A stretch of DNA of 13,070 nucleotides, taken from the IMG/VR virus record IMGVR_UViG_2541047681_000003; one strand, 5' to 3'. A program made the position numbers and the translations under genes. This stretch comes from a virus. Taxonomy: Duplodnaviria; Heunggongvirae; Uroviricota; Caudoviricetes. Shown piece by piece: positions 1-13,070 of this stretch. Numbering within the stretch: position 1 is the first letter of the stretch; each line of letters starts with the position of its first letter. The notes under the pieces were generated by a model. That model saw only the letters and a program-made list of their open reading frames with translations, was not told the origin of the DNA and searched no databases.

Positions 1-705
1 CTGCCGCTGTTTCCGGCGCATGAATGTTATGTGGAGCCGTTTTGTGGGGCAGCAGCGCTCTATTTTCTTAAGGTACCCGGCAAGATCGAAGTCATTAATG
101 ATATCAACGGTGAGCTGGTGAACCTGTATCGGGTGGTAAAACATCATCTGGAAGAATTTGTACGCCAGTTCAAATGGGCGCTGGTCAGCCGGCAGATCTA
201 CAAATGGCTGCAGATCACCCCGGAAGAAACACTGACGGATATCCAGCGTGCAGCACGGTTCTACTACCTTCAGAAGCAGGCGTTTGGGGGCAAGGTGGCG
301 GAGCACAGCTTTGGTACCTCCACCATATCCCCGCCACGCTTCAACCTGCTGCGTATTGAAGAAGAACTGTCAGCGGCACACCTGCGGCTTTCCAGAACGG
401 TCATAGAACACATGGACTGGCAACAGTGCATAGAACGATATGATCGCCCGCATACGTTGTTCTACTGTGACCCTCCATACTGGGGAACGGAAGGTTATGG
501 TGTGGAGTTCGGACTAGAAAATTATGATCATATGGCAGATTTAGCACGCAGGATCAAAGGGAAGATGATTATATCGGTGAACGATATCCCGGAAATGCGG
601 CAGGCATTCAACGGTCTAAATATTCAGTCGGTTGATATCAGCTACAACCTCAAGATCACTGGCAAATCCAGTCGCAAGAAGGAACTCATTATCCTCAACT
701 TTTGA
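1..705 (+). CDS. DNA adenine methyltransferase, Dam-like; 5'-partial, reading frame is open from base 1
   Basis: Frame is open upstream of the GTG at 31 back to base 1. Translation has CYVEPFCGAAA (compare E. coli Dam motif I, LVEPFVGAG as I recall it) and FYCDPPYWG (DPPY motif IV of N6-adenine methyltransferases). Stop codon at 703-705. Confidence 0.8.
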   Translation: MPLFPAHECYVEPFCGAAALYFLKVPGKIEVINDINGELVNLYRVVKHHLEEFVRQFKWALVSRQIYKWLQITPEETLTDIQRAARFYYLQKQAFGGKVAEHSFGTSTISPPRFNLLRIEEELSAAHLRLSRTVIEHMDWQQCIERYDRPHTLFYCDPPYWGTEGYGVEFGLENYDHMADLARRIKGKMIISVNDIPEMRQAFNGLNIQSVDISYNLKITGKSSRKKELIILNF

Positions 706-1900
706 CCGAATAGTAAGACTTCATGCAGTGAATCAAGTACTGCATGAAGTCAAGGGCTGGTTTTGTGTACCAAAAATAAACAGTGATAGCGGTAATAATT
801 CCCATAACTAGAACACCACGTATAATCCAGAACGTACGTTTCTGCGTGTCTAGTCGCGCAGAAATACTGCTAAATACACCAGCCACGTCATCTTTAATGA
901 AGGAATATTCCTTATTAATCTGTTTTTCTTTGTATTCAATTTCTTCGCCTAAGGCCTTTATAGATTGCATCTGGTTCGAAAGTGCCAGCCAGATTAACGT
1001 TGCAGCAAAAATGCATCCCAGAAGAATTATTGTGTTTGTTATCCCTTGGCCTGACCATTTCGTAGCCACTTTGAATTGGGTAGCTACGATAACAGAGGCA
1101 ACAGGAATGCCAAGTATATGGTTCTGGATATCTGAAAACGCTTTGTGGATTTTACCCATTTCTTCGACTTTTGCAGCACGCAGTTGATCCATTACTTTGT
1201 CATAAGAGAATCCAGAAGAGTAGATACGATACCCTTTCAGAAACTTTTCATGCAGACGCTGAATATTGTCCAGTAAATAAGCGAATACTAGAGGTGAATC
1301 AATTCCATCACTAACTGCTTGAATACTTTCAATCAGAATATCTAGCTTCTGATCCTTATGGGTATCATCATTGAAACAAGCTATAAGGTTATCAAGATAC
1401 TCCCTTTGCAAATTTTGTACATTTTCTGCAGCGAAGTGCGGTAATAGCTTGATAACTTCTTTTTTCAGAAAAACTAACTGACAAGTTGAGTTATCAAAGT
1501 AGGCCGCGGCCTCTTTTAGCAGGTTAACGAACTCGAGAATCTTCCGGTAGTTGCTGATGAAAACGGGGATATCTTCATCATCATTACGAAATTTTGTTTC
1601 TAGGATGAAGTAATTAGCTGGCTCAAGGCACTGATGCTTTGGAGCATTTAGCAATTTTTCATGGGTGGAAAACACAAGTCCCAGTCCACTCCGTGGTGAC
1701 GTCACACGTAGGATGATCGTGTTACCTGGAGCGATAGTGCCTGTATCAATAGAAAGACCATATTCACGAGGATCATCAAGCAAAGTATCAACCAGATCAC
1801 AATCGGACTGATCTAAGAGCAACAGCGAACCGACACGAAACCCCTCTTGGAATTCCATACGACGATACAGAGCTGTCAGCATCTCAAATGAAATCGCCAC
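695..1900 (-). CDS. Membrane-anchored protein of unknown function (401 aa); second gene of the leftward repressor-A-B block
   Basis: GTG start at 1900..1898, 2 bp after the TAA of the upstream gene, with GAGG 7 nt upstream. C-terminal hydrophobic stretches GITNTIILLGCIFAATLIWLAL and FWIIRGVLVMGIITAITVYFWY look like TM helices. The N-terminal ~290 aa look soluble with no motif I recognise. Visibly AT-rich. Confidence 0.6.
   Translation of the reverse strand: MAISFEMLTALYRRMEFQEGFRVGSLLLLDQSDCDLVDTLLDDPREYGLSIDTGTIAPGNTIILRVTSPRSGLGLVFSTHEKLLNAPKHQCLEPANYFILETKFRNDDEDIPVFISNYRKILEFVNLLKEAAAYFDNSTCQLVFLKKEVIKLLPHFAAENVQNLQREYLDNLIACFNDDTHKDQKLDILIESIQAVSDGIDSPLVFAYLLDNIQRLHEKFLKGYRIYSSGFSYDKVMDQLRAAKVEEMGKIHKAFSDIQNHILGIPVASVIVATQFKVATKWSGQGITNTIILLGCIFAATLIWLALSNQMQSIKALGEEIEYKEKQINKEYSFIKDDVAGVFSSISARLDTQKRTFWIIRGVLVMGIITAITVYFWYTKPALDFMQYLIHCMKSYYSVKS
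717..751. repeat. Perfect palindrome, 13-bp arms GACTTCATGCAGT / ACTGCATGAAGTC around a 9-nt loop
   Basis: Read directly from the sequence. It sits 12 bp after the methylase stop and inside the last codons of the convergent minus-strand gene 695..1900. Confidence 0.7.
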
Positions 1901-1902
1901 GA

Positions 1903-2910
1903 TTAAACCTCAGTCATCCACATTTCCCTAAATTCTTCAGGTACATTACGTAGGGTGATAATATTTGTTTCCGGATCATAATCAATATAGCCTTCAGTTT
2001 TCCCTTCCCGGTCAAACTTAAGTTCCCAATATTTAGACTTGCCTTTAAAAGATACCAGAGCCCGAATGACTCGACCATCAGGAACGAAGCCATCCGATAA
2101 CTCCAACTCTTCAGCAGCAAGTTTACCAGATAACTCCTCGGGAGCCTGGGGCCAAATGGCATTAACAAGGGTTTCAAGACTAAGTGGTTCACCAGCCTTA
2201 CTTAGTGCATGTAAGTGTTCAAACGCACTCTTAAGAAATGCATCTTTTTCAGCGCCGTCAAGTCCTTTCTCTGCCGCAAATGCTTTTAAAACGTCACGTA
2301 ACTTTTCAGACTCTCGTTTGGCGATTAAGACATCATTACAGCCTAGGAACTGTTTAAAATAGTTTGAAACATTACCTTGCCCCTTAAGAAAACTGATATA
2401 GCGCTCTGCGCCACTTTCCCACGCGGTTAAGTCAATGCGCCCAGCCATACGCAGCTTAGCAATATCAAGATAGGTACTATCTTGGATGTTAAAATCATCT
2501 GTGACAGTGGACCCAATGGTAGCGCTTACAATAGCTATCAACAGGTGTTCATTGTGTCCTATCACGATATTTGCAAAAAGAACATAACCACCAGTAGCCA
2601 TGTTTTCTCGCTGAGAACGTTCCGTCAGGTGATGCATCATTCGGCAGGAACTTTGGTAGAAATCATCAACACCTTCGAGAAAGTCCCCAGCCATTCGTTC
2701 CATAGGATAGTTATCCGTATCGCCTTCAAAATAGCCATAACCTTTACCTGTGCGTCCTGCATATTTTGCACAAATATCGTTTATAAGGCGCTGAGAGGCT
2801 TCAGTAACTAGACCTTCTTCAGGACTCAATCTCTCAGAAGCGTCTCCATTTTGTTGTTTGTCTAAAATGTGAACTACAACGTGTTTAACTTCAATGGTCT
2901 GCTCAGACAT
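1903..2910 (-). CDS. NdpA/YejK-like nucleoid-associated protein homologue (335 aa)
   Basis: ATG at 2910 with AAGGTGG 6 nt upstream. Same length as E. coli YejK (335 aa). Segments GGYVLFA and LRMAGRIDLTAWESGAERYISFLKGQ resemble my recollection of YejK (GGFVLFC; IRMAARIDLTRWEGGEERYLAFIKGR). This is a by-eye match, not a database hit. Confidence 0.55.
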   Translation of the reverse strand: MSEQTIEVKHVVVHILDKQQNGDASERLSPEEGLVTEASQRLINDICAKYAGRTGKGYGYFEGDTDNYPMERMAGDFLEGVDDFYQSSCRMMHHLTERSQRENMATGGYVLFANIVIGHNEHLLIAIVSATIGSTVTDDFNIQDSTYLDIAKLRMAGRIDLTAWESGAERYISFLKGQGNVSNYFKQFLGCNDVLIAKRESEKLRDVLKAFAAEKGLDGAEKDAFLKSAFEHLHALSKAGEPLSLETLVNAIWPQAPEELSGKLAAEELELSDGFVPDGRVIRALVSFKGKSKYWELKFDREGKTEGYIDYDPETNIITLRNVPEEFREMWMTEV

Positions 2911-2980
2911 TGGCTATCCACCTTATTTTTTATTGCTTAATGGCAAATAATTTCTGCTATATGTTCTCGTTAGGAACACA

Positions 2981-3388
2981 TTAACCCACATTTTTTAACC
3001 GCTCAATCGTTGCGGATAATTCCTTCAGTTGTTTTTCCATCTCAATCACACGCTGTTTTTCTTCAGCGCCTCGCATGAGATCTCGCCGAACCTCAGGATC
3101 TAACTGGTTTAGAAGTTCAAGCATTTTAAGGTCTGACGGGCTGAATTGATGTTGTGTTGGTACAGCAACAATTTCTTTAGATGGAATATGTTCTTTACCG
3201 GTAAGTAGCCAATCGATTGATACACCCAAATGGGTACTTAGCGCAACAAGAGCCTCTGCGTTTGGTTCTCTCTCTCCACGCAAATAGTTTTGAAGTGAGC
3301 GATATGGAATTTTTGATAAGTCAGATAATGCCTTTATTGTCATGCCATTAGCATCCATCACTTCACGCAATCTCTCTTTTGTACTCAT
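2981..3388 (-). CDS. XRE-family helix-turn-helix repressor; candidate prophage immunity repressor
   Basis: Start taken at the internal Met (MSTKERLREVMDANGMTIKALSDLSKIPYRSLQNYLRGE...), which gives a typical N-terminal XRE HTH. It is divergent from the early operon and is followed by a C-terminal coiled-coil-like region. The longer ORF-track N-terminus would cover the promoter region and has implausible composition. Confidence 0.75.
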   Translation of the reverse strand: MSTKERLREVMDANGMTIKALSDLSKIPYRSLQNYLRGEREPNAEALVALSTHLGVSIDWLLTGKEHIPSKEIVAVPTQHQFSPSDLKMLELLNQLDPEVRRDLMRGAEEKQRVIEMEKQLKELSATIERLKNVG

Positions 3389-3404
3389 TTGAACATATCT
3401 CAAT

Positions 3405-3432
3405 TTGACACACTCATTTGGGTGTGTACAAT
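3405..3432 (+). promoter_or_regulatory. Sigma70-like early promoter (-35 TTGACA, 16-bp spacer, -10 TACAAT) overlapped by inverted repeat ACACAC-N8-GTGTGT (3408..3427)
   Basis: Hexamers read directly from the sequence in the divergent repressor/ner intergenic region. The 6-bp-arm inverted repeat spans the -35 and spacer. Direct repeat CAATAGA x2 lies at 3429..3444. Confidence 0.55.
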
Positions 3433-3476
3433 AGACCCAATAGAGTACATCATAACCTAACAGGAACACGGTGCAT

Positions 3477-3701
3477 ATGAACAAACAACAAGTTCGGGCA
3501 CGGCTGGTTGAACGAGGCAGTAGCTTGCGCCAGTTCGCGCTTAACGCGGGCTATGAACCACGAACAGTCACCCAGGCAGTCAGTCGCTGGGCTGGTAAAA
3601 GTGAACTACCTCGCGGTCGTTTGACTTATCGGATTTTGCGAGATCTATCGGTTGCAATAGGTAAAGAAGTTACCCCCGGTATCCTTAAGGAGGCGTCATG
3701 A
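3477..3701 (+). CDS. ner: Ner-like DNA-binding protein (Mu Ner / Nlp family)
   Basis: ATG at 3477 with AGGAA upstream. SLRQFALNAGYEPRTVTQAVSRWAGKSE resembles Mu Ner LSALSRQFGYAPTTLANALERHWPKGE. First rightward gene next to the repressor, as in Mu. Confidence 0.7.
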   Translation: MNKQQVRARLVERGSSLRQFALNAGYEPRTVTQAVSRWAGKSELPRGRLTYRILRDLSVAIGKEVTPGILKEAS

Positions 3702-4006
3702 ATAAACCAAATACATCAAGCTCAGGTATCCGTATTTTGCGCGTTCTTAAGGCCTTACGTGGCCACGCTTTGAACGGTGTTTCTAACGGGGAACTAGCGG
3801 TTGCACTGCACGAATCACCGGCAAACATCAACCGGGCACTTAACACGCTCATTGAAGAAGGGTTGGCTCTGAAACTAGAAAACGGGCGTTTCGCACCAGG
3901 CATCCAGTTGCTGCAGATCGCCATGGCCCACAGTAACGAGATGGCACGTGCACAGGATCGCATTAACGAAATCAACCAACGTGTTATTTCAGGTAGTCGT
4001 TTGTAA
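3698..4006 (+). CDS. Winged-helix DNA-binding protein (IclR/MarR-like HTH)
   Basis: ATGA start/stop overlap with ner. IRILRVLKALRG...VSNGELAVALHESPANINRALNTLIEEGLA looks like a winged HTH. Confidence 0.5.
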   Translation: MNKPNTSSSGIRILRVLKALRGHALNGVSNGELAVALHESPANINRALNTLIEEGLALKLENGRFAPGIQLLQIAMAHSNEMARAQDRINEINQRVISGSRL

Positions 4007-4016
4007 GGAGTAATCA

Positions 4017-4928
4017 ATGGGACGCACCAAATCACCGGTTAGCACTGAACTGAACGTCGAGGTACCGCTGTCGGATGATCTCAATGTCAGTCTAAACGCC
4101 ATGACACAGCATCGCATGGAAATCATGCAACAGTTCGGCGATGGTCTGCCTTATGAGCGCGATCGTGTTGTCCATGAGGCACGCTTTTATATGGCACAGA
4201 GCGCTGAGGCCATGCTGGAGGCAGGTAAGCGGCTGATAATCCTTAAGGAAAATGAACCACACGGGGAGTTTATAAAGATTCTTGAAAGTGAGTTGGGGCT
4301 GGCATACCGGACATCTGTGAGAATGATGCAAGCATCGACAAAATACTTATCCCCGGCGCTGAAACCAAATGTGCCAACGTTGGCACATTTGGGAAAAGCC
4401 AAACTTTTCGAATTAATGACAGAAGACGACGAAGAGCTTGCCGAACTGGCCGACGGCGGCACAGTTGCCGGCCTGACGCTTGACGACGTTGATCGCATGT
4501 CAGTACGCGAACTTCGCCAGGCCCTGCGCGAAGCGCGCGAAACCAACGCAGCACAACAGCGCGTACTCGCCGATAAAAATGAAAAAATTGATTCTCTCTC
4601 TACCAGACTGGAAAAGAAATCCCGTATTCAGCTGCCTGAGCCTGATGAGGAGGTTAAGAAGCTGCGGGCGGAAGTGACAGCATTAGCGGTTGAGGCGGAA
4701 TCTGCTATCGCCGTCCGACTGTCCAGCGCTTTTGAGACACTGTGCGCATATTGTGCTGAAAACATGATTGATACTCCCAGAGACTTCATGGCAGGCCTGG
4801 TCTGTCAACTGGAAAGCACAGCGCGTAGCCTGCGCTCCACATTTGACCTGCCGGACGAGCCAACAGGCGATGTCGCGCCTTCATGGCTGACTGAGCCGAC
4901 GCCACAGATTAACGGGCTGGAGGCATAA
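4017..4928 (+). CDS. Hypothetical protein (303 aa), acidic with a coiled-coil-like centre
   Basis: Strong RBS AGGAG 7 nt upstream of the ATG. Same strand and coding compositional style as the early operon. No motif recognised. Confidence 0.6.
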   Translation: MGRTKSPVSTELNVEVPLSDDLNVSLNAMTQHRMEIMQQFGDGLPYERDRVVHEARFYMAQSAEAMLEAGKRLIILKENEPHGEFIKILESELGLAYRTSVRMMQASTKYLSPALKPNVPTLAHLGKAKLFELMTEDDEELAELADGGTVAGLTLDDVDRMSVRELRQALREARETNAAQQRVLADKNEKIDSLSTRLEKKSRIQLPEPDEEVKKLRAEVTALAVEAESAIAVRLSSAFETLCAYCAENMIDTPRDFMAGLVCQLESTARSLRSTFDLPDEPTGDVAPSWLTEPTPQINGLEA

Positions 4929-4931
4929 CCA

Positions 4932-6701
4932 ATGAATGCTGCCCTGACTGAACGACTGGTTTATGTCGCCCGCGCGGCACGTGACGCGGGGCATGGTAAA
5001 CGCGGTGCAATATACGACGCTGCCTGTGCTGAACTTGGCATGTCCCGCGCCACTCTGCTGCGCAGGCTGAAGGAGGTCTCTGTGACTGATAAACGCAAAA
5101 AACGCGCCGATGCCGGGCGCAGCGCCCTGACCCGCGACGAAGCCGCGCTGATATCTGCCACACTGCGTGAGGCCACCCGCAAGAACGGTAAGCGTCTCTA
5201 TTCCATCGCAGATGCAGTGGAAACCCTGCGGGCTAACGGCTTTATCTCCGCAGGCAGAACAGATGAAACCACCGGTGAGTTTTTCCCGTTGTCCGAAGAT
5301 GCCATCAGCCGTGCCCTGCGTAACTATGGCCTGCACCCGGAACAACTGGATGCCCCTGCGCCGCATACCGAAGTGGCCAGTCTGCATCCCAATCACGTCT
5401 GGCAGATTGATGCCTCGCTCTGCACGCTTTACTACCTGAGCAATGGACACAAAGGGCTGCAGGTGATGGACAGCGCGAAATTCTACAAGAACAAGCCCGC
5501 TAACCTTGCCCGTATCGCCAGTGACCGCGTGTGGAGTTATGAGATTACCGACCATGCCAGCGGCTGGATTTACGTTGAGTATGTGACGGGTGCGGAATCC
5601 GGTGAGAACCTGTGTTCTGTGCTTATCAACGCCATGCAGGAGCGTGGCGGCGCAGACGTGCTGCACGGCGTGCCAAAAATACTCTATCTCGACCCCGGCT
5701 CGGCAAACACCGCGGGTATGACGAAAAACATGTGCCGCTCACTGGGCATCGACCTGATAGCGCACAAGCCGCATAACGCCCGCGCCACCGGACAGGTGGA
5801 AAAGGCGCGGGACATTATCGAACGCAAGCTGGAGCCGGGTCTGAAGTTCCGGCCGGTTCACAGTCTGGAAGAACTCAACGCGCTGGCCGCGAAATGGCGC
5901 AGCCACTTTAACGCCACGGCTGTTCACAGCCGCCACGGTAAAACCCGCACGGATATCTGGCTGAAGATTACTGCTGAGCAGCTGAAAAAAGCGCCTTCCG
6001 TTGAGGTATGTCGTGAACTGGCTGTGGCGGCACCAGAACTCCGCAAAGTCACGCCAAAACTTCGTGTCTCGTTCCGGGGCACTGAATTTGACGTATCAAC
6101 GGTACCGGGCGTACTGGTTGGTGAAAAACTGATGATTACCCGTAACCCATGGCGCAGCGATGTGGCACAGGTGGTTCTGACCGGTGAGGACGGCCACGAG
6201 ACGTTCTTCCTGGTCGAAGAGGTCAGAAAGAACGAGTTTGGCTTTGCTGAAGGCGCGGCGGTATTTGGCGAAAGTTACAAAGCCCTGCCGGAAACCCCGG
6301 CACAGATGGCGGCAAAAGAAACTGAAGCGCTGGTTACCGGTACAGACAACGCCGCAGATGCAGCCGCCGCACGCAAGGCGAAGGCGCTGCCGTTCGGCGG
6401 GCGGCTTGACCCGTATAAACATATCGACGACACCACACTTCCGGCCTATATGCCGAAGCGTGGTCAGGCCTCTGACGTACGCGGGCCGCGCACTGAACAA
6501 CGTCCCATGACTCATGTGGAGGCCGCGAAAGCCCTGCGCGATAAGTTCAGCGCCGACGGCCTTACCTGGACGCCGGAACATTACCGCCAGTTAACGGCAC
6601 AGTACCCGGACGGCGTACCGGAAGCCGCACTGGATGAAGTCATGGCCACGCTGACCACACCGGCCAGCAGCAGTGTTATCAGCATTGTTAACGGCAACTG
6701 A
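4932..6701 (+). CDS. DDE transposase, rve/integrase-core type (Mu A-like role)
   Basis: GGAGG RBS. Candidate catalytic triad D160 (HVWQIDAS), D254 (ILYLDPGS), E290 (ATGQVEKARD), with the D-35-E spacing typical of rve-fold transposases. N-terminal HTH-like MSRATLLRRLKE. Confidence 0.85.
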   Translation: MNAALTERLVYVARAARDAGHGKRGAIYDAACAELGMSRATLLRRLKEVSVTDKRKKRADAGRSALTRDEAALISATLREATRKNGKRLYSIADAVETLRANGFISAGRTDETTGEFFPLSEDAISRALRNYGLHPEQLDAPAPHTEVASLHPNHVWQIDASLCTLYYLSNGHKGLQVMDSAKFYKNKPANLARIASDRVWSYEITDHASGWIYVEYVTGAESGENLCSVLINAMQERGGADVLHGVPKILYLDPGSANTAGMTKNMCRSLGIDLIAHKPHNARATGQVEKARDIIERKLEPGLKFRPVHSLEELNALAAKWRSHFNATAVHSRHGKTRTDIWLKITAEQLKKAPSVEVCRELAVAAPELRKVTPKLRVSFRGTEFDVSTVPGVLVGEKLMITRNPWRSDVAQVVLTGEDGHETFFLVEEVRKNEFGFAEGAAVFGESYKALPETPAQMAAKETEALVTGTDNAADAAAARKAKALPFGGRLDPYKHIDDTTLPAYMPKRGQASDVRGPRTEQRPMTHVEAAKALRDKFSADGLTWTPEHYRQLTAQYPDGVPEAALDEVMATLTTPASSSVISIVNGN

Positions 6702-6711
6702 GGAGGGAAAC

Positions 6712-7878
6712 ATGCTGGTACTGAAGCAGCAACTGAAAGAGGCCCGTATTCCACAGGCGGTGGTGGCGAGAGCTGTCGATGTTTCTGAGGCCACGCTGGC
6801 CCAGATTGTGAATCATAACGCGTGGCCCCGCACCAGCCCCGGAGAAGTGCGCCGGCGTCTTGCGTCCTGGCTGGAAAGTCAGGGGATTGATACAACGAAG
6901 AGTTTTGATGCTGTACAGGGCGCGGCCACGCCCCGTACAGCGGGTACCACAGATAAAACGAGCCTCAGTGAGGAAGAGAATATGTTACTCAAAAAACAGG
7001 TGTTATTTCCAGCAACCAAAAAAGCGTTTGGTCTTTTCCGTGACCCGTTCGCCGACGAAGCCATGCAGGGTTCTGATGATGTGTTCACCACCCCGGACAT
7101 TCGCTACGTGCGTGAGGCGCTGTACCAGACAGCCCGTCATGGTGGGTTTATGGCCGTCATCGGTGAGTCCGGTGCGGGTAAATCCACGCTGCGCCGCGAC
7201 CTGACTGAACGTATCAACCGCGAGAATGCGCCGGTAATTGTTATCGAGCCATACATCATCGCTATGGAAGACAACGATGTGAAAGGGAAAACCCTGAAGG
7301 CAGCAGCTATTGCCGAAGCCATTATCAGTACCATCGCACCACTGGAAAGCATCAGACGCAGTCAGGACGCCCGCTTTCGCCAGTTGCATCGCGTCCTGAA
7401 AGACAGCAGCCAGGCGGGGTTCAGCCACGTTCTGGTGATTGAGGAGGCCCACAGTCTGCCCATTCCGACACTGAAACACCTCAAACGCTTTTTTGAGCTG
7501 GAGTCCGGTTTCAAAAAACTGCTGTCCATCGTGCTGATTGGCCAGCCGGAACTGGCGACAAAACTGTCTGAACGCAATATGGAAGTCCGTGAAGTCGTTC
7601 AGCGCTGTGAGGTGGTCGAACTTCTGCCTCTGGACAATAACCTTGAAGAGTTTCTGACGTTCAAACTGCAACGGGCCGGTAAACAACTGACGGACATTAT
7701 GGACGCCAGCGCAGTGGATGCCATACGTGCCCGCCTGAGCAATCCGGGAAGTCATCGTAAAAATATGGTCAGCCTGCTGTATCCGCTGGCCGTCAGTAAC
7801 CTGGTAATAGCCGCCATGAATCTGGCCGCTGAAATCGGGGTTCCACAGGTCAACGCTGACGTTGTCAAAGGGGTTTAA
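6712..7878 (+). CDS. Transposition ATPase, AAA+ (MuB / TniB / TnsC-like)
   Basis: Start at the internal ATG 6712 with AGGAGGG RBS just after the transposase stop. Walker A GESGAGKST, Walker B-like VLVIEEAH, N-terminal HTH-like segment. Confidence 0.8.
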   Translation: MLVLKQQLKEARIPQAVVARAVDVSEATLAQIVNHNAWPRTSPGEVRRRLASWLESQGIDTTKSFDAVQGAATPRTAGTTDKTSLSEEENMLLKKQVLFPATKKAFGLFRDPFADEAMQGSDDVFTTPDIRYVREALYQTARHGGFMAVIGESGAGKSTLRRDLTERINRENAPVIVIEPYIIAMEDNDVKGKTLKAAAIAEAIISTIAPLESIRRSQDARFRQLHRVLKDSSQAGFSHVLVIEEAHSLPIPTLKHLKRFFELESGFKKLLSIVLIGQPELATKLSERNMEVREVVQRCEVVELLPLDNNLEEFLTFKLQRAGKQLTDIMDASAVDAIRARLSNPGSHRKNMVSLLYPLAVSNLVIAAMNLAAEIGVPQVNADVVKGV

Positions 7879-7880
7879 TA

Positions 7881-8150
7881 ATGAAATCCACCACAGGTAT
7901 CAACCAGCAAATCAGCAAAGTGCAGTCAGCCATTATGGCGCTTAAGGCGACGAACACGGATGTACAAAGCATCACCATCAGGGGTAACAAACCTGTCATC
8001 CGCGTTTCCCGGAGTGCGCATTGCATGCGCATGCTTGAGCAGGGAAAGGCCTGTTATCTGTATACCGGTCATGACCACAGGGGACATTTCCGTCAGGGCG
8101 TTTTCGAACTGCACGGCTGTCGCGTCGTGTGGCCGGAATCTTTGTGGTAA
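7881..8150 (+). CDS. Hypothetical small protein (89 aa), Cys/His-rich C-terminal half
   Basis: Starts 2 bp after the ATPase stop. Sits where Mu has kil, but no sequence similarity could be established. Confidence 0.5.
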   Translation: MKSTTGINQQISKVQSAIMALKATNTDVQSITIRGNKPVIRVSRSAHCMRMLEQGKACYLYTGHDHRGHFRQGVFELHGCRVVWPESLW

Positions 8151-8177
8151 TCAGCACAACAGGAGGAGTCATAAAAT

Positions 8178-8708
8178 ATGGCAAAAAGTACAAAAGGGGC
8201 AAAACGTATCAAAGCCGCAGCAGCACTCTGGGTGCCGGGGACACGCGAAGAGGTCATTGAGGGAATCAGACTGCTTGGTGACGCGCAACGTGAACTGGTC
8301 AGGGCTGAAACAGAAATGAATGACACCATTGGCGACATCACTGCACGTTATGCCCCGCTCACCGAGAGCCTGAAAAAACGCATGGCCGAACTGCAGTCCG
8401 GTATCCAGACATGGTGTGAGGCGCACCGTGATGAACTGACCGGCAACGGGAAGGTGAAGTTCGCTAACCTCACCACCGGCGAGGTGCAGTGGCGAAACCG
8501 TCCGCCGTCAGTCAGCATTCGCGGGGCGGATAATGTTATTGAATTACTGAGACGTCTGGGGCTTGAGCGCTTTATTCGTGTAAAGGAGGAAATAAATAAA
8601 GATGCCATTCTGAATGAAAAAGAGGCTGTGAAAAATATTCCCGGTATTACCATAAAAAGTGATATTGAGGATTTTTCAATAATTCCTTTTGAGCAGGATG
8701 TGCAGTAA
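8178..8708 (+). CDS. gam: Host-nuclease inhibitor protein Gam (Mu Gam family)
   Basis: AGGAGGAG RBS. Length and sequence (RLETEMND-like AETEMNDTIGDITARYAP, WCEAHRDELT, SVSIRGADNVIELLRRLGLERFIR, ITIKSDIEDFSIIPFEQ) closely follow Mu Gam as I recall it. Confidence 0.85.
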   Translation: MAKSTKGAKRIKAAAALWVPGTREEVIEGIRLLGDAQRELVRAETEMNDTIGDITARYAPLTESLKKRMAELQSGIQTWCEAHRDELTGNGKVKFANLTTGEVQWRNRPPSVSIRGADNVIELLRRLGLERFIRVKEEINKDAILNEKEAVKNIPGITIKSDIEDFSIIPFEQDVQ

Positions 8709-8750
8709 ACACACCACGTTAATTATTTAATAAAAACATTTTCTTTTTTA

Positions 8751-8787
8751 TTCCGGCGTCAGCGCCGCGGGCTTCTGCACGCCGGAA
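8751..8787. repeat. GC-rich inverted repeat TTCCGGCGT / ACGCCGGAA (9-bp arms, 19-nt loop) in the gam-downstream gap
   Basis: Read directly from the sequence. Preceded by an AT-rich tract, with no T-run after it on either strand. Confidence 0.5.
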
Positions 8788-8805
8788 ACAGAGGAGAATT
8801 AAATT

Positions 8806-9000
8806 ATGATATTTAAATGTATTCAGTGCGAGAGGGATATAACAGCCCTGCGTTTTCACAGCGCCATCGCCGTGATGTCCGGTAAGTATCACATACCTGC
8901 AGTACGTGTCACCCTGGTCTGCCCGTACTGCAGCCAGCATTTTTCGGCGGACGTGCCCGTCATAGAATTCTCCCGCCCTGACAGGGAGGACGCGCAATGA
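8806..9000 (+). CDS. Small zinc-ribbon-like protein (64 aa)
   Basis: GGAG RBS. Two CxxC pairs (CIQC ... CPYC). Confidence 0.5.
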   Translation: MIFKCIQCERDITALRFHSAIAVMSGKYHIPAVRVTLVCPYCSQHFSADVPVIEFSRPDREDAQ

Positions 9001-9269
9001 TTACCCCACAGGAAGCACGACAGCGCACCCGAACTCTTGTTGAACACTATGTCAACGAGTGTGAATGCCGCGACCTCACCGATGTGAAGCACGTCCTGAC
9101 GGCGCTAATCAGCATGGCCACACAGGCCATTGTGGCGACCAACGGAAAGGAGGCTGCCCTGCAGGTACTGATGAACACACTCACCCACACGGCAGAGCAT
9201 GAGGTGCCGTACCGGATGGAAACCACTGCAGAAGGCGGCCTGCACATCACCGTCAGCCGGAAGCACTGA
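8997..9269 (+). CDS. Hypothetical protein (90 aa)
   Basis: ATGA overlap with the upstream stop suggests translational coupling. No motif recognised. Confidence 0.45.
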   Translation: MITPQEARQRTRTLVEHYVNECECRDLTDVKHVLTALISMATQAIVATNGKEAALQVLMNTLTHTAEHEVPYRMETTAEGGLHITVSRKH

Positions 9270-9278
9270 GGGCGCGGC

Positions 9279-9575
9279 ATGACACGAAACACCGAACTCA
9301 CCCGCACCGCCCTCTACCGTCTGGCCCTGCAGCGTTTCGGGCCGGACGCACAGGCCCTGAAACTGACAGAAGAGGCCGCTGAACTGGCGGCCAGTGCTGC
9401 CCGCAATCTGAACGGACAGGGCAGCGAAAGTGACCTCGCGGCAGAGCTGGCAGACGTGGAAATCATGACAGAGCAACTGCGCCTTCAGGGGATGGACCGG
9501 CTGATTGACTTCCACAAACAGAAAAAACTGGAACGTCTGGCTGCACGACTGGGCGTGATTTACACGAACGAGTAA
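9279..9575 (+). CDS. MazG-like nucleotide pyrophosphohydrolase (small all-alpha NTP-PPase)
   Basis: GAGGG RBS. EEAAELAASAARN ... ELADVEIMTEQL fits the E-x2-E ... E-x2-D metal-binding pattern of MazG-like proteins. Confidence 0.5.
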   Translation: MTRNTELTRTALYRLALQRFGPDAQALKLTEEAAELAASAARNLNGQGSESDLAAELADVEIMTEQLRLQGMDRLIDFHKQKKLERLAARLGVIYTNE

Positions 9576-9589
9576 CCGGGAGGCATTCA

Positions 9590-9805
9590 ATGGCTGACAT
9601 ACTCAGGGAAATCACCGCATGGACACTGATTCTTACTGGCCTGGCGACATGCCTCAGTGCGGGGGCAGCCCTGGCTGCCCTGCTGATGCACATAACAACA
9701 CAGTGGTTATGGGAAAAGCTTAAAGCAGCATACAGCCTGAAAGAGCTGTCCGACGCTGTCCGGGCATGGAAACGGCAGAAAAATACCGGAGATACAGAAC
9801 AATGA
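9590..9805 (+). CDS. Small membrane protein (71 aa, one predicted TM helix)
   Basis: GGGAGG RBS. Hydrophobic stretch ITAWTLILTGLATCLSAGAALAALLM. Confidence 0.45.
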   Translation: MADILREITAWTLILTGLATCLSAGAALAALLMHITTQWLWEKLKAAYSLKELSDAVRAWKRQKNTGDTEQ

Positions 9806-10485
9806 CAGACCAGAATAAACACATTGAGAAACTGAAAAAGTTGCTGGCGCTGGCCGCATCCGGCAACCCGCACGAGGCCGCTCTGGCACTGCGCCGAGCC
9901 CGTAAACTGATGGATGTTCACGGCATCACACATTCCGACATTGCTATGAGTGATATTGATGAAACCATCAGTCATTACTGGCCGACAGGCAGTCTCCGTC
10001 CACCGCGCTACATGCTGGGCCTGATGAACATCATCCGCGAGGCATTTGGTGTTAACTCCATCATTCACCCCGGCACGCATCCGTCTGTGGGGTTCTACGG
10101 TAACCGGGAACGAGCGGCACTGGCTGCGTACACCTGGGAAGTGCTGGTCCGCCAGCTGAAAAAGGCGCGTCAGCAGTATATCAGCGCACAGAACAAAAGA
10201 ATAAAAAACGCCACCCGTACCAGCCGTGGAGACCAGTTTGCTGAAGGCTGGGTACTGGCCGTTATCAGTGAAATACAGTCCTTTGCCCTGACCGATGATG
10301 AGCGTGAACTGATGCAACAGTGGCTGGAACATAAATACCCGCAGACGCAAACCACCAGGGCGCGTAAACCGGGAAGAAGCCGCAATGGCGACGCCTCGCG
10401 CTATGCGGGGTTTCGTGAAGGGCAGAACGTCAGACTGCACCGCCCGGTCAGTGGGCAGGAACAACAGAAACTGGAGGCCAGATGA
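9802..10485 (+). CDS. Phage protein with DUF2786-like N-terminal motif (227 aa)
   Basis: Start at internal ATG 9802, overlapping the upstream stop as ATGA. KHIEKLKKLLALAASGNPHEAALALRRARKLMDVHGIT resembles the DUF2786 signature as I recall it. Confidence 0.5.
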   Translation: MTDQNKHIEKLKKLLALAASGNPHEAALALRRARKLMDVHGITHSDIAMSDIDETISHYWPTGSLRPPRYMLGLMNIIREAFGVNSIIHPGTHPSVGFYGNRERAALAAYTWEVLVRQLKKARQQYISAQNKRIKNATRTSRGDQFAEGWVLAVISEIQSFALTDDERELMQQWLEHKYPQTQTTRARKPGRSRNGDASRYAGFREGQNVRLHRPVSGQEQQKLEAR

Positions 10486-10712
10486 TTACGCTATCAGGTA
10501 AAAGCCGGAAATTAAAAGCCTGCCGAATATCTGCCAGATACCTTTTTGCCCGCGCCTTTTTTAAGAACGTCAGGCCGGGGATCACAATTGGTGTTATTGC
10601 CGGACGCGAACAGGTTGAAAAATACATGTCAGGTGCATGGTGGAATAACGACCCTGTCATTGCTGCCCGTAATATTCATATCGAATGGGGAGGTATTCAG
10701 AATGACTACTGA
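10482..10712 (+). CDS. Hypothetical protein (76 aa)
   Basis: ATGA overlap with the upstream gene. Basic N-terminus. No motif recognised. Confidence 0.4.
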   Translation: MITLSGKSRKLKACRISARYLFARAFFKNVRPGITIGVIAGREQVEKYMSGAWWNNDPVIAARNIHIEWGGIQNDY

Positions 10713-10908
10713 AACCATTGTCTGTTTTCTTTTCTGGTATATGTACGCAGGATCATGCAGCGCAAGACTTCATCGTTCCCTGGGCTATGGCAGGCACTAC
10801 GACACCGCGCATTACATCCTGTACATGACCGCCGTCATGTTGTTCTGGCCAGTCACCCTGCCAGCTGCAACCGACATTGTTGCCGACAGACTGAAAAAAA
10901 GGAGATGA
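10702..10908 (+). CDS. Small membrane protein (68 aa)
   Basis: Internal ATG of ORF 10546..10908 with GGGGAGG RBS. Hydrophobic stretches IVCFLFWYMYAG and ILYMTAVMLFWPVTL. Confidence 0.4.
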   Translation: MTTETIVCFLFWYMYAGSCSARLHRSLGYGRHYDTAHYILYMTAVMLFWPVTLPAATDIVADRLKKRR

Positions 10909-10909
10909 T

Positions 10910-11359
10910 ATGCAGAAAAAACGCCTGATACAGCTTATCCATATTGCCCGTAATGAACTGGGTATGGATGAAGACACCTACCGCCAGATGTTACAGGGGC
11001 TGACCGGTAAAGCCTCAACCAAAGGAATGGATACCACACAACTAAACTGCGTGCTGGAATCCATGAAAAAGAAAGGCTTTCGCGTTAAACCAGCCAGAAA
11101 AGCCAGCTCCGGTTTACCGCTGGATAACCATCCGCAGTCCAGGAAAATTCGTGCGCTATGGCTTGAAATGGCTGCTGCCGGCATTGTTCGTGACCGTTCA
11201 GAAAATGCATTAGCGCGGTGGATCAAGCGGGAAACGGGCATCAGCGCCCTGCGCTGGCTCAATACTGAACAGGCAAGCAGTGTTATTGAGAAACTGAAGA
11301 AGTGGCAGCACAGAGCTGCGGGAGTAAAACATGAGCGACCTGAATCAGTTTCGAAGTAA
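10910..11359 (+). CDS. gemA: GemA-like protein (Mu gp16 family)
   Basis: AGGAG RBS. N-terminus KKRLIQLIHIARNELGMDEDTYRQML resembles Mu GemA (KAQLIAKIHIAKKQLNMDDDTYRAML as I recall it). Lies immediately upstream of the Mor-like gene, as in Mu. Confidence 0.65.
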   Translation: MQKKRLIQLIHIARNELGMDEDTYRQMLQGLTGKASTKGMDTTQLNCVLESMKKKGFRVKPARKASSGLPLDNHPQSRKIRALWLEMAAAGIVRDRSENALARWIKRETGISALRWLNTEQASSVIEKLKKWQHRAAGVKHERPESVSK

Positions 11360-11729
11360 AGGGCCGGAACTCCTGGTGGAGCTGGCACAGCATACCTCTG
11401 AGACCGTTCGCGAGATTATTGATATTGAGCCCGCAATTGCCGACCAGATTGGTCAGGCCGTCGCGAACCGAATGATGCAGGTCTGGGGCGGGCAAAACGT
11501 TTATTTCCCGATGGGCATGGTATGGAAGGTCAGTCAGCGCGACCGGGAAATCTTCAGGGAGTTTAACGGACGCAACCACCACGAACTGGCCCGCAAGTTT
11601 GGTGTTTCGCTTCAGTGGGTCTACAGCGTGGTTAAGCGGGTCAGAAAAGAAGAACTGGATCGGATGCAGGGCAGGTTGTTTGATGAAGATCTGCCAGAGG
11701 AGACGAAAGACGTTAACAAATCCAGATAA
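11331..11729 (+). CDS. mor: Mor-like transcriptional activator (Mor/C family)
   Basis: GGGAG RBS. C-terminal HTH region REFNGRNHHELARKFGVSLQWVYSVVKRVR resembles Mu Mor (NDFNGRNVSELTTRYGVTFNTVYKAIRRMR as I recall it). Last gene before the terminator. Confidence 0.7.
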   Translation: MSDLNQFRSKGPELLVELAQHTSETVREIIDIEPAIADQIGQAVANRMMQVWGGQNVYFPMGMVWKVSQRDREIFREFNGRNHHELARKFGVSLQWVYSVVKRVRKEELDRMQGRLFDEDLPEETKDVNKSR

Positions 11730-11771
11730 TTCCTGCTTGTTAAAGTCCTTTCAAAAATCTCCTTATTGTAT

Positions 11772-11805
11772 AAAAGCACGGTAGACCCCTTACCGTGCTT
11801 TTTTT
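11772..11805 (+). terminator. Rho-independent terminator ending the early operon
   Basis: Stem GCACGGTA / TACCGTGC with 7-nt loop GACCCCT, followed by seven T residues, preceded by AAAA. Located 43 bp after the mor stop. Confidence 0.8.
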
Positions 11806-11843
11806 ATGCTCTCTCTTTAGTATTCAGGATGCAGGGAGAAAAT

Positions 11844-12476
11844 ATGTTTGACGTTTCGTTGTTAAATCTGCCATGGGCAACACTGGTGACCCTGACCAGT
11901 GGCTATATTGGGTATTTTATTGCGAATGTGGGACTGAAGGATCACCACAAGCCCATTGAGGTGACTTTTTCTTCGCTGATTTTTGGCCTGACAGCAATGA
12001 TGGCTTACCAGGCTGTTATGTGGGCAGGTCTGAATGCCTGGCTGGCAACACCACCAGCACTTCTGTGTGCCGTTACATGCGGTGCGTGGTGGCGCAGGTA
12101 CGGTCGCAAATGGATGTACAGATTACTGTGGAATAATGATGTTTCATGGTCTGACGATACCAGCTCAGCATGGCAGGCAATGTTTGATCAAACAGGCTTC
12201 AGCGTTACCGAGGTCAGAGTGATTCTTCGCGATGGTTCCGGTATGATGTCACGGCTGCCAGGGAACTTTGAAGAGTGGCCTAACGGTCCGTTTACCCTGG
12301 GGAATAAAGGCGATATGGTTCTTTACGTCACGCACAGCAGCCCTTCAGGCAGTAACGAATGGGAAGAGTATAAAGGCGTGGTTGATAAGTACTGGGGAGC
12401 TCTGGCAACCTATATTCCAGCAGATCAGATTGCCAGAGTGGAGATCAGGCGCGTTCGTGCAACGAACGATGAATGA
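11844..12476 (+). CDS. Membrane protein of unknown function (210 aa): about three N-terminal TM helices plus a soluble C-terminal domain
   Basis: ATG at 11844 with GGGAG RBS. The ORF-track start at 11766 would read through the terminator hairpin. Hydrophobic stretches WATLVTLTSGYIGYFIANVGL, SSLIFGLTAMMAYQAVMWAGL and PALLCAVTCGAWW. Confidence 0.55.
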   Translation: MFDVSLLNLPWATLVTLTSGYIGYFIANVGLKDHHKPIEVTFSSLIFGLTAMMAYQAVMWAGLNAWLATPPALLCAVTCGAWWRRYGRKWMYRLLWNNDVSWSDDTSSAWQAMFDQTGFSVTEVRVILRDGSGMMSRLPGNFEEWPNGPFTLGNKGDMVLYVTHSSPSGSNEWEEYKGVVDKYWGALATYIPADQIARVEIRRVRATNDE

Positions 12477-12720
12477 TGTTTATTTTTTCCCTGGGGCAGG
12501 GGCTGCCGGCATAGTGGTTTTATTGGCAGAGGAAGACGATTCTCCTTTTCTACCGGAATCGCGCTCGAACGTCACGATGTGCTTGCTTTTGGGCTTTTCT
12601 GAGTAATCCAGGCTATCATGCTTATTGTTTTGAGTAGTCATTGGAATCATCCTTTTTGTTGCGGGTCATGTTTCAGCAAACTCGATTCTAAGTTGCCAGG
12701 AAGGATGATTTCAATGCCCG

Positions 12721-12837
12721 ACTTATCTATCGTATAGCGGAAAAGAATTTCAGTTCTGTTCACCAGAACCCATGTTAACCCACTCCAATTCGTTATTTAT
12801 CTCACGGATCCCCCTTCATTTATCTCATGTCTGATCA
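12721..12837. repeat. Terminal non-coding region with direct repeats ATTTATCTCA (12795..12804 and 12818..12827) and a degenerate copy ACTTATCTAT (12721..12730); candidate transposase-binding sites at the element's right end
   Basis: Repeats read directly from the sequence, two perfect copies 23 bp apart. Element-side sequence ends ...TCTGATCA (CA at 12836..12837) next to host kefC-derived sequence. No ORF on either strand between 12607 and 12837. Confidence 0.5.
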
Positions 12838-13070
12838 CTTTGTGGATCGAGTTCGAGGCCGATAATAAACAGCATCAGCACCACGCCAATCTCGGCAAAG
12901 TGCAGAATAGATTCGGCATCGGTCACCAGTCGCAGCCCCCACGGGCCAATAATGCAGCCGGCGATCAGGTAGCCAAGAACCGATCCCAGACCGAGACGTA
13001 CCGCAATGGGAACAATCAGCGCCGCCGAACCGAGATAAATCAGCGCCTGAATAAGCGTATGGCTATCCAT
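12838..13070 (-). pseudogene. kefC: kefC 5' fragment: first ~78 codons of the glutathione-regulated K+ efflux gene, then unrelated sequence and a stop
   Basis: Translation [77 protein letters not shown] matches the E. coli KefC N-terminus as I recall it. The reading then becomes SDQT-stop instead of RLWKL.... Junction uncertainty is about 3 bp. Confidence 0.75.

Follow-up and report, generated by a model that had tools for sequence, protein, structure and literature searches.

Phage BcepMu (Bcepmuvirus; Summer et al. 2004, as cited in PMC2771037) has a published layout of two divergent gene clusters. In this layout, genes 1–13 occupy the bottom strand; lysogeny control comes next, and then the genes for lysis, the head and a P2-like tail (PMC2771037). 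B3-like phages have an early operon that is inverted relative to Mu and D3112 (PMC5977238). BcepMu gene 1 encodes the Mor/C activator and lies 364 bp from the genome end. Phage Mu is ordered c-ner-A-B-…-mor-C-lys-head-tail-(gin)-mom from attL to attR, with mor internal. In the Mu cascade, Mor activates Pm for the expression of C, and C activates the late promoters. The target duplication of Mu is 5 bp long.

We analysed a stretch of 13,070 nt, here called the window. It very probably covers the early arm, up to the right terminus, of a BcepMu-like (Bcepmuvirus/B3-type) transposable myovirus prophage inserted in kefC, with the late genes in a second, divergent cluster. A sequence-only reading had compared the window with Mu and had offered three explanations for the short distance between mor and the right end: a prophage that is defective or has undergone deletion, a smaller mobile element based on a Mu-like early module, or a permuted gene order with the late genes to the left. 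The Mu gene order is the wrong reference for this element and BcepMu/B3 is the right one. The position of mor beside the genome end is the ordinary, already published layout of the BcepMu/B3 family.

Early arm of the prophage

The window contained the following genes of the early arm and the lysogeny region:

31–705, plus strand: D12-class DNA adenine methylase, first 66 nt missing since the window opens inside the gene (Pfam PF02086, E 1.6e-18)
2981–3388, minus strand: repressor of the HTH_3/CI type at the interface of the two divergent clusters (Pfam HTH_3 3.4e-12, Phage_CI_repr 1.5e-6)
3471–11729, plus strand: early operon, directed toward the right end (ORFs with Pfam and PHROG matches)
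4932–6701, plus strand: BcepMu/B3-type DDE (rve) transposase, distinct from the MuA type (Pfam rve only; phrog_310, E 1e-147)
6712–7878, plus strand: ExeA-type AAA+ transposition protein, MuB analogue (Pfam AAA_22, E 3.8e-20; phrog_296, DNA transposition protein)
10910–11359, plus strand: GemA/gp16 family gene (Pfam GemA, E 9.8e-41)
11331–11729, plus strand: mor, the final conserved gene ahead of the terminus (Pfam Mor PF08765, E 1.1e-43)

The early operon encoded, in this order, a ner-like HTH protein, an IclR-type HTH protein, a DUF3102 protein, the transposase, the AAA+ transposition protein (RefSeq name 'ExeA family protein'), Gam, small ORFs, a DUF2786 protein, GemA and Mor. It was collinear with BcepMu genes 16 to 1, and the position of the repressor equalled that of BcepMu gp17. 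As in BcepMu, the cluster of regulators, rve transposase, ExeA-type ATPase, GemA and Mor reached the genome end, with Mor/C last. In this family the early operon is inverted with respect to Mu, starting by the repressor and running outward to the genome end, and because of this orientation no conserved gene normally lies between mor and the TG…CA terminus. No RNA genes were found in the window with Rfam at the gathering threshold or with a tRNA scan.

The transposase was 68.5% identical to BcepMu gp09 over 98% of its length and belonged to the same class, gp09 being annotated as 'Tn552/IS1604 rve transposase'. The transposase of Pseudomonas phage B3, of the same family, was 56.6% identical, which is below the value for BcepMu. 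The Pfam search returned rve only, and Mu-specific transposase domains were not found in the protein. The transposase matched 69 phage records, from phages of Pseudomonas, Burkholderia, Escherichia, Stenotrophomonas, Klebsiella and Ralstonia and from cyanophages; neither Escherichia phage record among the matches listed was Mu.

The element resembled Mu in its TG…CA ends, its Gam, GemA and Mor homologues, its tail-end invertase and its Mu-like genes for terminase, portal and F/G head proteins; a replicative-transposition life style is implied. Unlike Mu, it had a transposase outside the MuA family, an ExeA-type ATPase (AAA_22) as the B analogue and a P2-like tail. We consider it very unlikely that the window derives from a Mu-like prophage that lost C and about 25 kb of late genes after mor, so that its right end moved beside mor. 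Nothing late follows mor when the window is measured against Mu, and the left part of the kefC copy lies outside the window. However, since the transposase is not of the MuA type, the Mu order is not the ancestral state from which such a deletion would have started.

Right terminus and host junction

The true transposon terminus was located at position 12837, 1,108 bp past mor (11331–11729), in the sequence …TCATTTATCTCATGTCTGATCA|CTTTGT…. This confirmed the earlier estimate of about 1.1 kb. The features at the junction were:

12793–12826, minus strand: two terminal repeats GAGATAAAT(G/A)A, at positions 12–22 and 35–45 from the end
12816–12826 (R1) and 12793–12803 (R2), minus strand: putative transposase-binding sites
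12836–12837, plus strand: terminal CA dinucleotide that closes the element on the right (three independent insertions read TGAT…ATCA)
12838–12843, no strand assigned: CTTTGT, presumed right copy of a 6-bp target-site duplication, by inference from the sister insertions
12838–13070, minus strand: 5' fragment of the host gene kefC, interrupted by the insertion (NCBIfam KefC equivalog)

Among the matches listed for a megablast search with positions 11000–13070, the alignments ended at window positions 12837–12847, and each match bordered another host gene (fadM, fliC, rstB, ptsP, mdfA and others). The same right end was present in 114–119 complete E. coli genomes at varied host sites. Positions 12838–13070 encode residues 1–77 of KefC on the minus strand (NCBIfam KefC, E 8e-43, profile positions 2–78), so the terminus is a real insertion junction. 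This kefC stretch was matched by 5,423 of the 5,426 E. coli genomes. The identical kefC junction was absent among the complete E. coli genomes, in which the best records matched the phage part only (89% of the query).

Target duplications of 6 bp flanked all three complete insertions checked (GCTGGT, GAAGAA and CTCAGA), compared with 5 bp in Mu. A length of 5 or 6 bp was ambiguous from the insertion in strain M-17 alone, and those in strains JJ1887 and KE50 settled it at 6 bp. In the kefC copy, CTTTGT is presumed to be one half of the duplication, the left half lying beyond the window. TG…CA ends (TGAT…ATCA) were present in all three complete copies; for the window copy, the right junction only is visible.

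The ends were of the BcepMu kind, with TG…CA and, at each end, two copies of the repeat G(A/C)GATA(A/T)(A/T)T that start at positions 12 and 35. The two-repeat layout with its 23-bp spacing was also found at the left end of the prophage in E. coli M-17 (copy L001) and at both BcepMu ends. Similarity was end-specific, each end being homologous to its BcepMu counterpart, and the mor-side end read TGAnnAGAnnTGAGATA in the E. coli element and BcepMu alike. The left terminus of the element begins TGATGCGCCGCGCGATAAATG…, and the left-end repeat was not found anywhere within the window. The right end has the paired repeats that an intact terminus should have and is homologous to the end of BcepMu on the mor side, which argues against displacement by deletion, as does the occurrence of the same mor-proximal end in the complete 37–39-kb prophages fetched, in BcepMu and in the 114–119 genomes.

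Late genes in sister copies and in the population

Positions 1–12837 of the window were 99.74% identical to L001, without gaps. L001 is a complete 38.8-kb prophage, in which window base 1 corresponds to position 32808 and the methylase gene to 32742–33512. Sister copies with a full late complement and a normal left terminus were 99.4–99.7% identical to the window. The complete insertion in M-17 measured 38,849 bp, and the other two complete insertions had sizes of 37,045 and 38,007 bp.

To the left of the methylase, the minus strand of L001 encoded a holin, an SLT endolysin, terminase, portal, head, sheath and tube proteins, and further a tape measure, baseplate, fibres and an invertase, with a P2-like tail. 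The holin gene (L001 32144–32494, minus strand) ended 248 bp upstream of the methylase and opened the leftward late cluster. KE50 and JJ1887 had the same layout as L001. In the sister copies, the lysis, head and tail set began 314 bp left of the window start. The RefSeq annotation of copies L001, L005 and L006 listed a DUF935 portal, F/G morphogenesis proteins, sheath, tube, gpD, gpV, gpW, gpJ, gpI and an SLT transglycosylase. A Mu-like head, a P2-like contractile tail and an SLT endolysin were thus present in the sister copies, outside the window, and two divergent clusters were seen in the ORF map of the window and in L001, L005 and L006. As in BcepMu, the repressor occupied the interface, and beyond it came the genes for holin, SLT endolysin, a Mu-like head and a P2-like tail. 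The prophage here, judged by its sister copies, has a contractile P2-like tail, whereas phage B3 belongs to the siphoviruses (PMC5977238).

In this family, the cluster of lysis, head and P2-like tail genes diverges from the repressor region to the other end; in the sister copies it begins some 0.3 kb beyond the left edge of the window. In contrast to the Mu order, an accessory module separated mor from the terminus, and the late genes lay across the repressor (sister copies). The suggestion that the gene order is permuted, with the late genes to the left, is correct at the family level: the window opens inside the methylase gene, and the late region was seen in sister copies. These carried the full lysis, head and tail set and a normal left end, as that suggestion implied, but not the C-like activator expected with them. 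The late genes on the other side of the repressor also speak against a deletion, and the proposal of a defective prophage found no support.

The contrast with Mu, and nothing else, would favour a strain-specific rearrangement (an inversion) or an assembly artefact of a Mu-ordered phage, an explanation to which we gave next to no credence. The same order occurred in independent complete genomes of unrelated strains, in the record of Klebsiella phage KP12, which shares sequence with the element, and in BcepMu. Moreover, B3-like phages are described with an inverted early operon (PMC5977238), and both ends of the element are individually homologous to the corresponding BcepMu ends.

Phage PhiKM (PQ738613), which is classified in Bcepmuvirus, and the prophages of M-17, KE50 and JJ1887 were 95–99.7% identical in the early arm at the nucleotide level; the PhiKM record is partial and differently permuted. 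The right end and accessory module of M-17 and KE50 were identical to those of the window. JJ1887 and PhiKM had no membrane-protein module after mor and different genes beside the repressor, and the insertion sites differed. Fibre and tape-measure regions varied among the fetched copies. At its tail end, the E. coli element had a DNA invertase and an invertible fibre segment; BcepMu has an O-acetyltransferase in this place and, according to its description, lacks a fibre inversion system. The E. coli element had Gam and DUF2786 genes instead of the HU, SSB-like and DUF3164 genes of BcepMu, a 1-kb accessory module between mor and the end where BcepMu has a non-coding stretch of 364 bp, and, unlike BcepMu, a methylase and defence-like morons beside the repressor. 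The region beside the repressor was a second variable accessory locus, alongside the one after mor.

The early module, containing the A and B genes, was found in 638 of the 5,426 complete E. coli genomes (about 12%), including the ST131 strain JJ1887, at 707 places; the late sheath-tube segment was found in 639 genomes at 710 places. Up to three copies occurred per genome, for example in M-17, which is compatible with the replicative transposition and headful packaging of BcepMu-like phages, whose virion DNA has random host DNA at its two ends. The 24.9-kb late region of L001 was at least 80% matched at megablast level in only 97 genomes; the differences in the fibre and tape-measure parts between the fetched copies would reduce such coverage. 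A minority of the carriers may hold deleted copies.

These counts bear on whether the window could come from a small autonomous element or satellite that consists of the early module only (repressor, transposase, B, mor) and obtains its particles from a helper phage. In favour of this, the window has a true terminus with both regulators and every transposition function within about 10 kb of it, and mini-Mu-like derivatives can be built artificially. However, the early and late counts were virtually equal (638/707 and 639/710), which leaves nothing over for a population of early-only elements. The three E. coli copies that were fetched whole were all full length. Towards its left side, the window continues past the repressor and into the methylase gene; it is collinear with the full phage and contains no left-end repeat. 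We regard a satellite as extremely improbable; the same counts left the earlier proposals of a small element and of a deleted prophage unsupported. A very common E. coli prophage thus looks truncated by the Mu order, yet is, at the family level, a complete BcepMu-type phage. The BcepMu/B3 layout is the proper reference when this transposase family is scanned for defective prophages, mini-Mu elements or satellites. As by-products of the comparison, the ends were precisely defined with their 6-bp duplications and two variable accessory loci were located.

Mor, late promoters and the accessory module

A phmmer search over all ORFs retrieved one Mor/C homologue each from L001, L005 and BcepMu. A separate C gene was not found in the whole phage (phmmer over all ORFs of sister copies), and the C-like activator expected from Mu was not borne out. 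The element therefore resembles BcepMu in its single Mor/C homologue and differs from Mu, having one activator and no two-step cascade from Mor to C. The element TAA-N7-TAAWATC preceded four late operons in L001 (4 found versus 0.05 expected, all on the late strand), one of the four matches being independent of the derivation of the pattern. The four sites were L001 32545–32561, 25351–25367, 19434–19450 and 12804–12820. It sat about 19 nt upstream of weak −10 hexamers. BcepMu shared this late-promoter element (TAA-N7-TAAWA), with copies ahead of its holin and protease genes. The motif matches suggest that one Mor-type activator could drive late transcription directly via the shared element; since a C paralogue is absent and the element is shared, Mor probably activates the late promoters directly. 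Acting in trans, Mor would not be affected by its distance from the late genes. The conservation of the late element from E. coli to Burkholderia makes it testable whether a single activator replaces the Mor/C cascade.

TAA-N7-TAAWATC was not found in the window, where the sole match had one mismatch and was at chance level. As the late element is absent there, positions 11730–12837 showed no sign of a Mor-dependent promoter, including for the membrane-protein gene, and the Mor-dependent middle promoter that had been anticipated gained no support. ORF, Pfam and PHROG searches agreed with the earlier statement that no head, tail or lysis genes lie between mor and the right end. The segment held two ORFs, a terminator-like hairpin and the terminal repeats with predicted transposase binding. 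Its features upstream of the repeats were:

11772–11802, plus strand: intrinsic-terminator-like hairpin directly after mor, with a 13-bp stem, a 5-nt loop and a T-run
11844–12476, plus strand: accessory membrane protein of 210 aa, distant DUF6338 relative, ATG start
12480–12641, minus strand: convergent hydrophilic ORF of 53 aa with a Ser/Pro/Lys-rich tail (phrog_15726, E 1.2e-41; RefSeq-annotated copies)
12685–12714, minus strand: match to the σ70-type promoter consensus, TTGAAA-N18-TAGAAT (10/12)

The membrane-protein gene had been described as the only gene in this interval; it was found, and with it the 53-aa ORF as a second gene. Their stop codons were 3 nt apart. A TTG start at 11766 for the membrane-protein gene was an artefact of ORF finding, and the ATG at 11844 was used. 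The protein had three predicted transmembrane helices and possibly a C-terminal Sm-like beta-barrel, for which the fold matches were weak. Neither protein had a Pfam, PADLOC or NCBIfam match, and PHROGs placed both in families of unknown function.

The last 1.1 kb past mor may be viewed as an optional accessory module that comprises the hairpin, the membrane protein and the small ORF with its own candidate promoter. The σ70-type match would read inward from the end to the 53-aa ORF. Between mor and the membrane-protein gene, the plus strand showed no σ70-like promoter, and read-through of the hairpin is one possibility for the transcription of this gene. The module is probably expressed in the lysogen.

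Prophages of Klebsiella and Salmonella also had the module, there downstream of mor genes that have diverged. In these diverged phages Mor was 33–41% identical, compared with 54–65% for the membrane protein, and the promoter was nearly identical: the sequence CATTGAAAyCATCCTTC…CTAGAATC recurred almost unchanged in prophages L010 and L011, whose Mor proteins were 33–41% identical. Syntenic ORFs of 48–57 aa adjoined the membrane-protein homologues in Klebsiella, Salmonella and Bradyrhizobium, and the enterobacterial copies of the small ORF kept the ribosome-binding site AAGGAT. Upstream of the Bradyrhizobium homologue, an 89-aa HTH protein matched Mor weakly (E 0.03), too weakly to establish a mor remnant beside it. 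The position of the module was constant at the end of otherwise diverged transposable phages, and the gene pairing was kept even in Bradyrhizobium. We tentatively propose that the two genes of the module, the membrane protein and a disordered 53-aa protein, might form a system that is complete in itself, passes horizontally between phages and is expressed in the lysogen, with superinfection exclusion, abortive infection or a toxin-antidote function as candidate roles; superinfection exclusion or defence is our best guess. In JJ1887, which lacks the module, mor stopped 163 bp from the terminus.

Early region and right terminus

Open reading frame mapping and domain searches identified a Mu-like early region in the window, with mor as its closing gene.

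Early-arm features (window positions; ORF map and domain searches unless stated)
2981–3388, minus strand: CI-type repressor
after the repressor, plus strand: ner-like HTH, IclR-type HTH and DUF3102 genes
4932–6701, plus strand: rve transposase, 589 aa
6712–7878, plus strand: AAA_22/ExeA-type ATPase
between ATPase and GemA, plus strand: Gam, several small ORFs and a DUF2786 gene
10910–11359, plus strand: GemA (domain searches)
11331–11729, plus strand: Mor (Pfam Mor, E 1.1e-43)
12838–13070, minus strand: KefC residues 1–77 (NCBIfam KefC equivalog, E 8e-43)

The mor gene was separated by 1,108 bp from a sharp junction at 12837/12838, where kefC was cut after codon 77; the kefC frame enters the phage DNA and reads four foreign codons before a stop. 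The insertion should deprive the host of KefC, a glutathione-gated K+ efflux system. The phage part of 11000–13070 was found with megablast in 114 of 5,426 complete E. coli genomes, none of which had the kefC junction of the window. Among the matches listed, the similarity ended at window positions 12837–12847 beside differing host genes (fadM, fliC, rstB, ptsP, mdfA and others). Together with the KefC junction, this establishes 12837 as a real terminus and the element as mobile. The sequence-only reading had correctly placed the terminus about 1.1 kb past mor. Its statement that 11730–12837 lacks late genes also held, but the interval contained two ORFs instead of a single gene.

All three complete insertions examined, in E. 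coli M-17 (L001), JJ1887 (L005) and KE50 (L006), had TGAT…ATCA ends and target duplications of 6 bp (GCTGGT, GAAGAA and CTCAGA), in contrast to the 5-bp duplications of Mu. The right flank of the window starts with CTTTGT (12838–12843). The repeat G(A/C)GATAAAT was present twice per end, at positions 12–22 and 35–45 (at the right end, window 12816–12826 and 12793–12803), and BcepMu had the same layout at both of its ends.

Terminal sequences of this element and BcepMu
mor-side end: this element TGATCAGACATGAGATAAATG; BcepMu TGAAGAGAGGTGAGATATTTC
tail-side end: this element TGATGCGCCGCGCGATAAATG; BcepMu TGAAGCGCGGCGCGATATTTC

The likeness to the BcepMu ends was end-specific, and by this comparison the right end of the window is the counterpart of the BcepMu gene-1 end and not a secondary breakpoint. 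A 145-bp fragment matching the right end of the phage (window ~12684–12828) at approximately 90% identity was located on plasmid pAPEC-O2-211A-ColV (L015, 3001–3144). It occurred on about 105 APEC ColV-type plasmids, where the surrounding DNA is unannotated and has IS1/IS3 remnants on one side and a LysR gene on the other. An old insertion probably left this relic.

Late genes and the BcepMu/B3 layout

The lack of late genes after mor had been read as a sign of a defective prophage, a small mobile element or a permuted gene order. Window positions 1–12837 aligned to the M-17 prophage with 99.74% identity and zero gaps. This prophage was 38,849 bp long and flanked by two rstB halves. Its late genes were all on the opposite strand, left of the methylase gene, reading toward the other end, and the holin gene ended 314 bp left of the position equivalent to window base 1.

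Late genes of the M-17 prophage (left of the methylase gene, opposite strand)
Lysis: holin, SLT endolysin and spanin-like genes
Packaging and head: small and large terminase, DUF935 portal, F-/G-like morphogenesis genes
Capsid: protease/scaffold and capsid candidates
Tail: sheath, tube, tape measure, P2-type baseplate D, V, W, J and I
Tail-side end: tail fibres, DNA invertase

The KE50 copy (38,007 bp, right end identical to that of the window) and the JJ1887 copy (37,045 bp) had the same layout. The full late cluster left of the methylase gene in all three copies confirmed the permuted order. A defective prophage was rejected at the family level, as complete sister prophages of 37,045–38,849 bp carry late genes. 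The left edge of the window falls within the methylase gene, and the kefC copy is presumed complete on the strength of its near-identical relatives.

A small element built on the early module was likewise rejected at the family level. In the complete E. coli collection, the transposase and ATPase module occurred in 638 genomes (707 places) and the sheath–tube–connector segment in 639 genomes (710 places), so early-only elements are not a detectable population. At least 80% of the 24.9-kb late region of the M-17 prophage was matched in only 97 genomes at megablast stringency. Fibre and tape-measure parts vary among the fetched copies, which would reduce late-region coverage, and some truncated copies could exist. 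The late-gene probe matched three places in the M-17 chromosome (NZ_CP068394.1), corresponding to three phage copies; three was also the maximum per genome in the collection.

The gene order, permuted relative to Mu, is the already described BcepMu/B3 layout and as such an ordinary finding; about 12% of the complete E. coli genomes carry it. BcepMu has two gene clusters: genes 1–13 on the bottom strand (among them transcription regulators, the transposase and small genes) and a top-strand cluster for lysis, head and P2-like tail, with the lysogeny control genes 16/17 where the two meet (PMC2771037). Its termini are CA, and its transposase belongs to the Tn552/IS1604 family, not to that of MuA (PMC2771037). 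In its record, gene 1 ('Mu protein C / Mor', 365–736, minus) comes last, with 364 bp between it and the end of the genome. The window transposase was 68.5% identical to BcepMu gp09 and 56.6% to the B3 transposase, and the window Mor matched BcepMu gp01 (phmmer, E 1.3e-41). The early arm was shared with Klebsiella phage KP12, whose record agrees in gene order with M-17-type prophages, and, at 95% identity, with Escherichia phage PhiKM (PQ738613), which is classified in Bcepmuvirus. The PhiKM record is partial and differently permuted, and its gene order is therefore not to be taken at face value. In its minus-strand orientation, the right end lies at 14074–14098 of the reverse complement, directly followed by other sequence.

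A DNA invertase and oppositely oriented tail-fibre/assembly genes were present at the tail-side end (L001 6874–9130, record L002 24–1116, L005 3149–5796). This end of the E. coli and Klebsiella members resembles the G/Gin region of Mu, whereas BcepMu has an O-acetyltransferase there and is described as having no fibre inversion system (PMC2771037).

Mor and candidate late promoters

Exactly one Mor homologue each was found among all ORFs of at least 40 aa in L001, L005 and BcepMu (phmmer). The same search with Mor detected no C gene among these ORFs, and a Mor-to-C middle step is therefore not expected. Non-coding gaps in the late cluster precede the holin, protease/scaffold and tail chaperone genes. 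These three gaps shared the pattern TAA-N7-TAAWATC, 19 nt upstream of weak −10-like hexamers (GATGCT, CAAACT and CATACT) that had no −35. The pattern matched four times in L001, versus 0.05 expected, always on the late strand. The fourth match, not used in deriving the pattern, fell in the gap that precedes baseplate gene W. The pattern did not occur within the 13,070-nt window.

Matches to the late pattern
L001, 32545–32561, minus strand: before the lysis operon
L001, 25351–25367, minus strand: before the protease/scaffold operon
L001, 19434–19450, minus strand: before the tail-chaperone operon
L001, 12804–12820, minus strand: before the baseplate-W operon
BcepMu (L004; pattern search), 11486–11502, 18813–18829 and 30770–30786, the third on the opposite strand

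In BcepMu, TAAAGCCGATTAAAAGA precedes the holin gene and the protease gene; the third match was in the same V–W gap but on the opposite strand. The placement of the pattern in the late gaps resembles that in Mu promoters dependent on Mor or C, which have no −35 and whose activator site overlaps its position. We infer that these sites are candidate Mor-dependent late promoters. One Mor-type protein, produced from the last part of the early transcript, would then switch on four late promoters in trans.

Accessory loci

Features between mor and the right end (window positions)
11772–11802, directly after mor: strong terminator-like hairpin
11844–12476: 210-aa membrane-protein gene (phrog_12870)
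12480–12641, convergent with the membrane-protein gene: 53-aa hydrophilic ORF (phrog_15726)
12714–12685, minus strand, before the 53-aa ORF: promoter consensus match TTGAAA-N18-TAGAAT

The membrane protein had 72 homologues in Enterobacterales and beyond, the most distant of which bear DUF6338. Its AlphaFold model (pLDDT 84.5) has three transmembrane helices and a C-terminal beta-barrel, and its conserved motifs include DHHK, SWSD, GxxGD and YVTH. An AAGGAT ribosome-binding site precedes the 53-aa ORF.

The same succession, from mor through the membrane-protein gene and the small convergent ORF to the end of the prophage, recurred in transposable prophages of Klebsiella (L007–L010) and Salmonella (L011), with Mor 33–41% identical, the membrane protein 54–65% identical and the promoter almost unchanged. 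In the window, L010 and L011, CATTGAAAyCATCCTTC…CTAGAATC and the AAGGAT before the 48–53-aa ORF were almost invariant. Such conservation beside so divergent a Mor suggests exchange of, or constraint on, the module as a unit. A Bradyrhizobium homologue of the membrane protein was also accompanied by a convergent ORF, of 57 aa. JJ1887-type E. coli copies lacked the module, their mor ending 163 bp from the terminus, and only 119 of roughly 638 phage-bearing E. coli genomes had it. The module is thus an accessory locus and optional; the corresponding position in BcepMu is empty. The most plausible guess for its role is lysogen-expressed exclusion or defence.

Beside the repressor (window 695–2910, minus strand), a gene for a 401-aa membrane protein adjoins one for an NA37-family nucleoid-associated protein. 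The 401-aa protein had a sub-threshold match to NCBIfam 'DS1_2_antiphage' (E 3e-21; 75.9 bits, where the cutoff is 315), and PADLOC matched it weakly to KwaA (8e-5). The pair, located between methylase and repressor, was absent in the JJ1887 and KP12 copies, which suggests a variable accessory locus of defence-like character.
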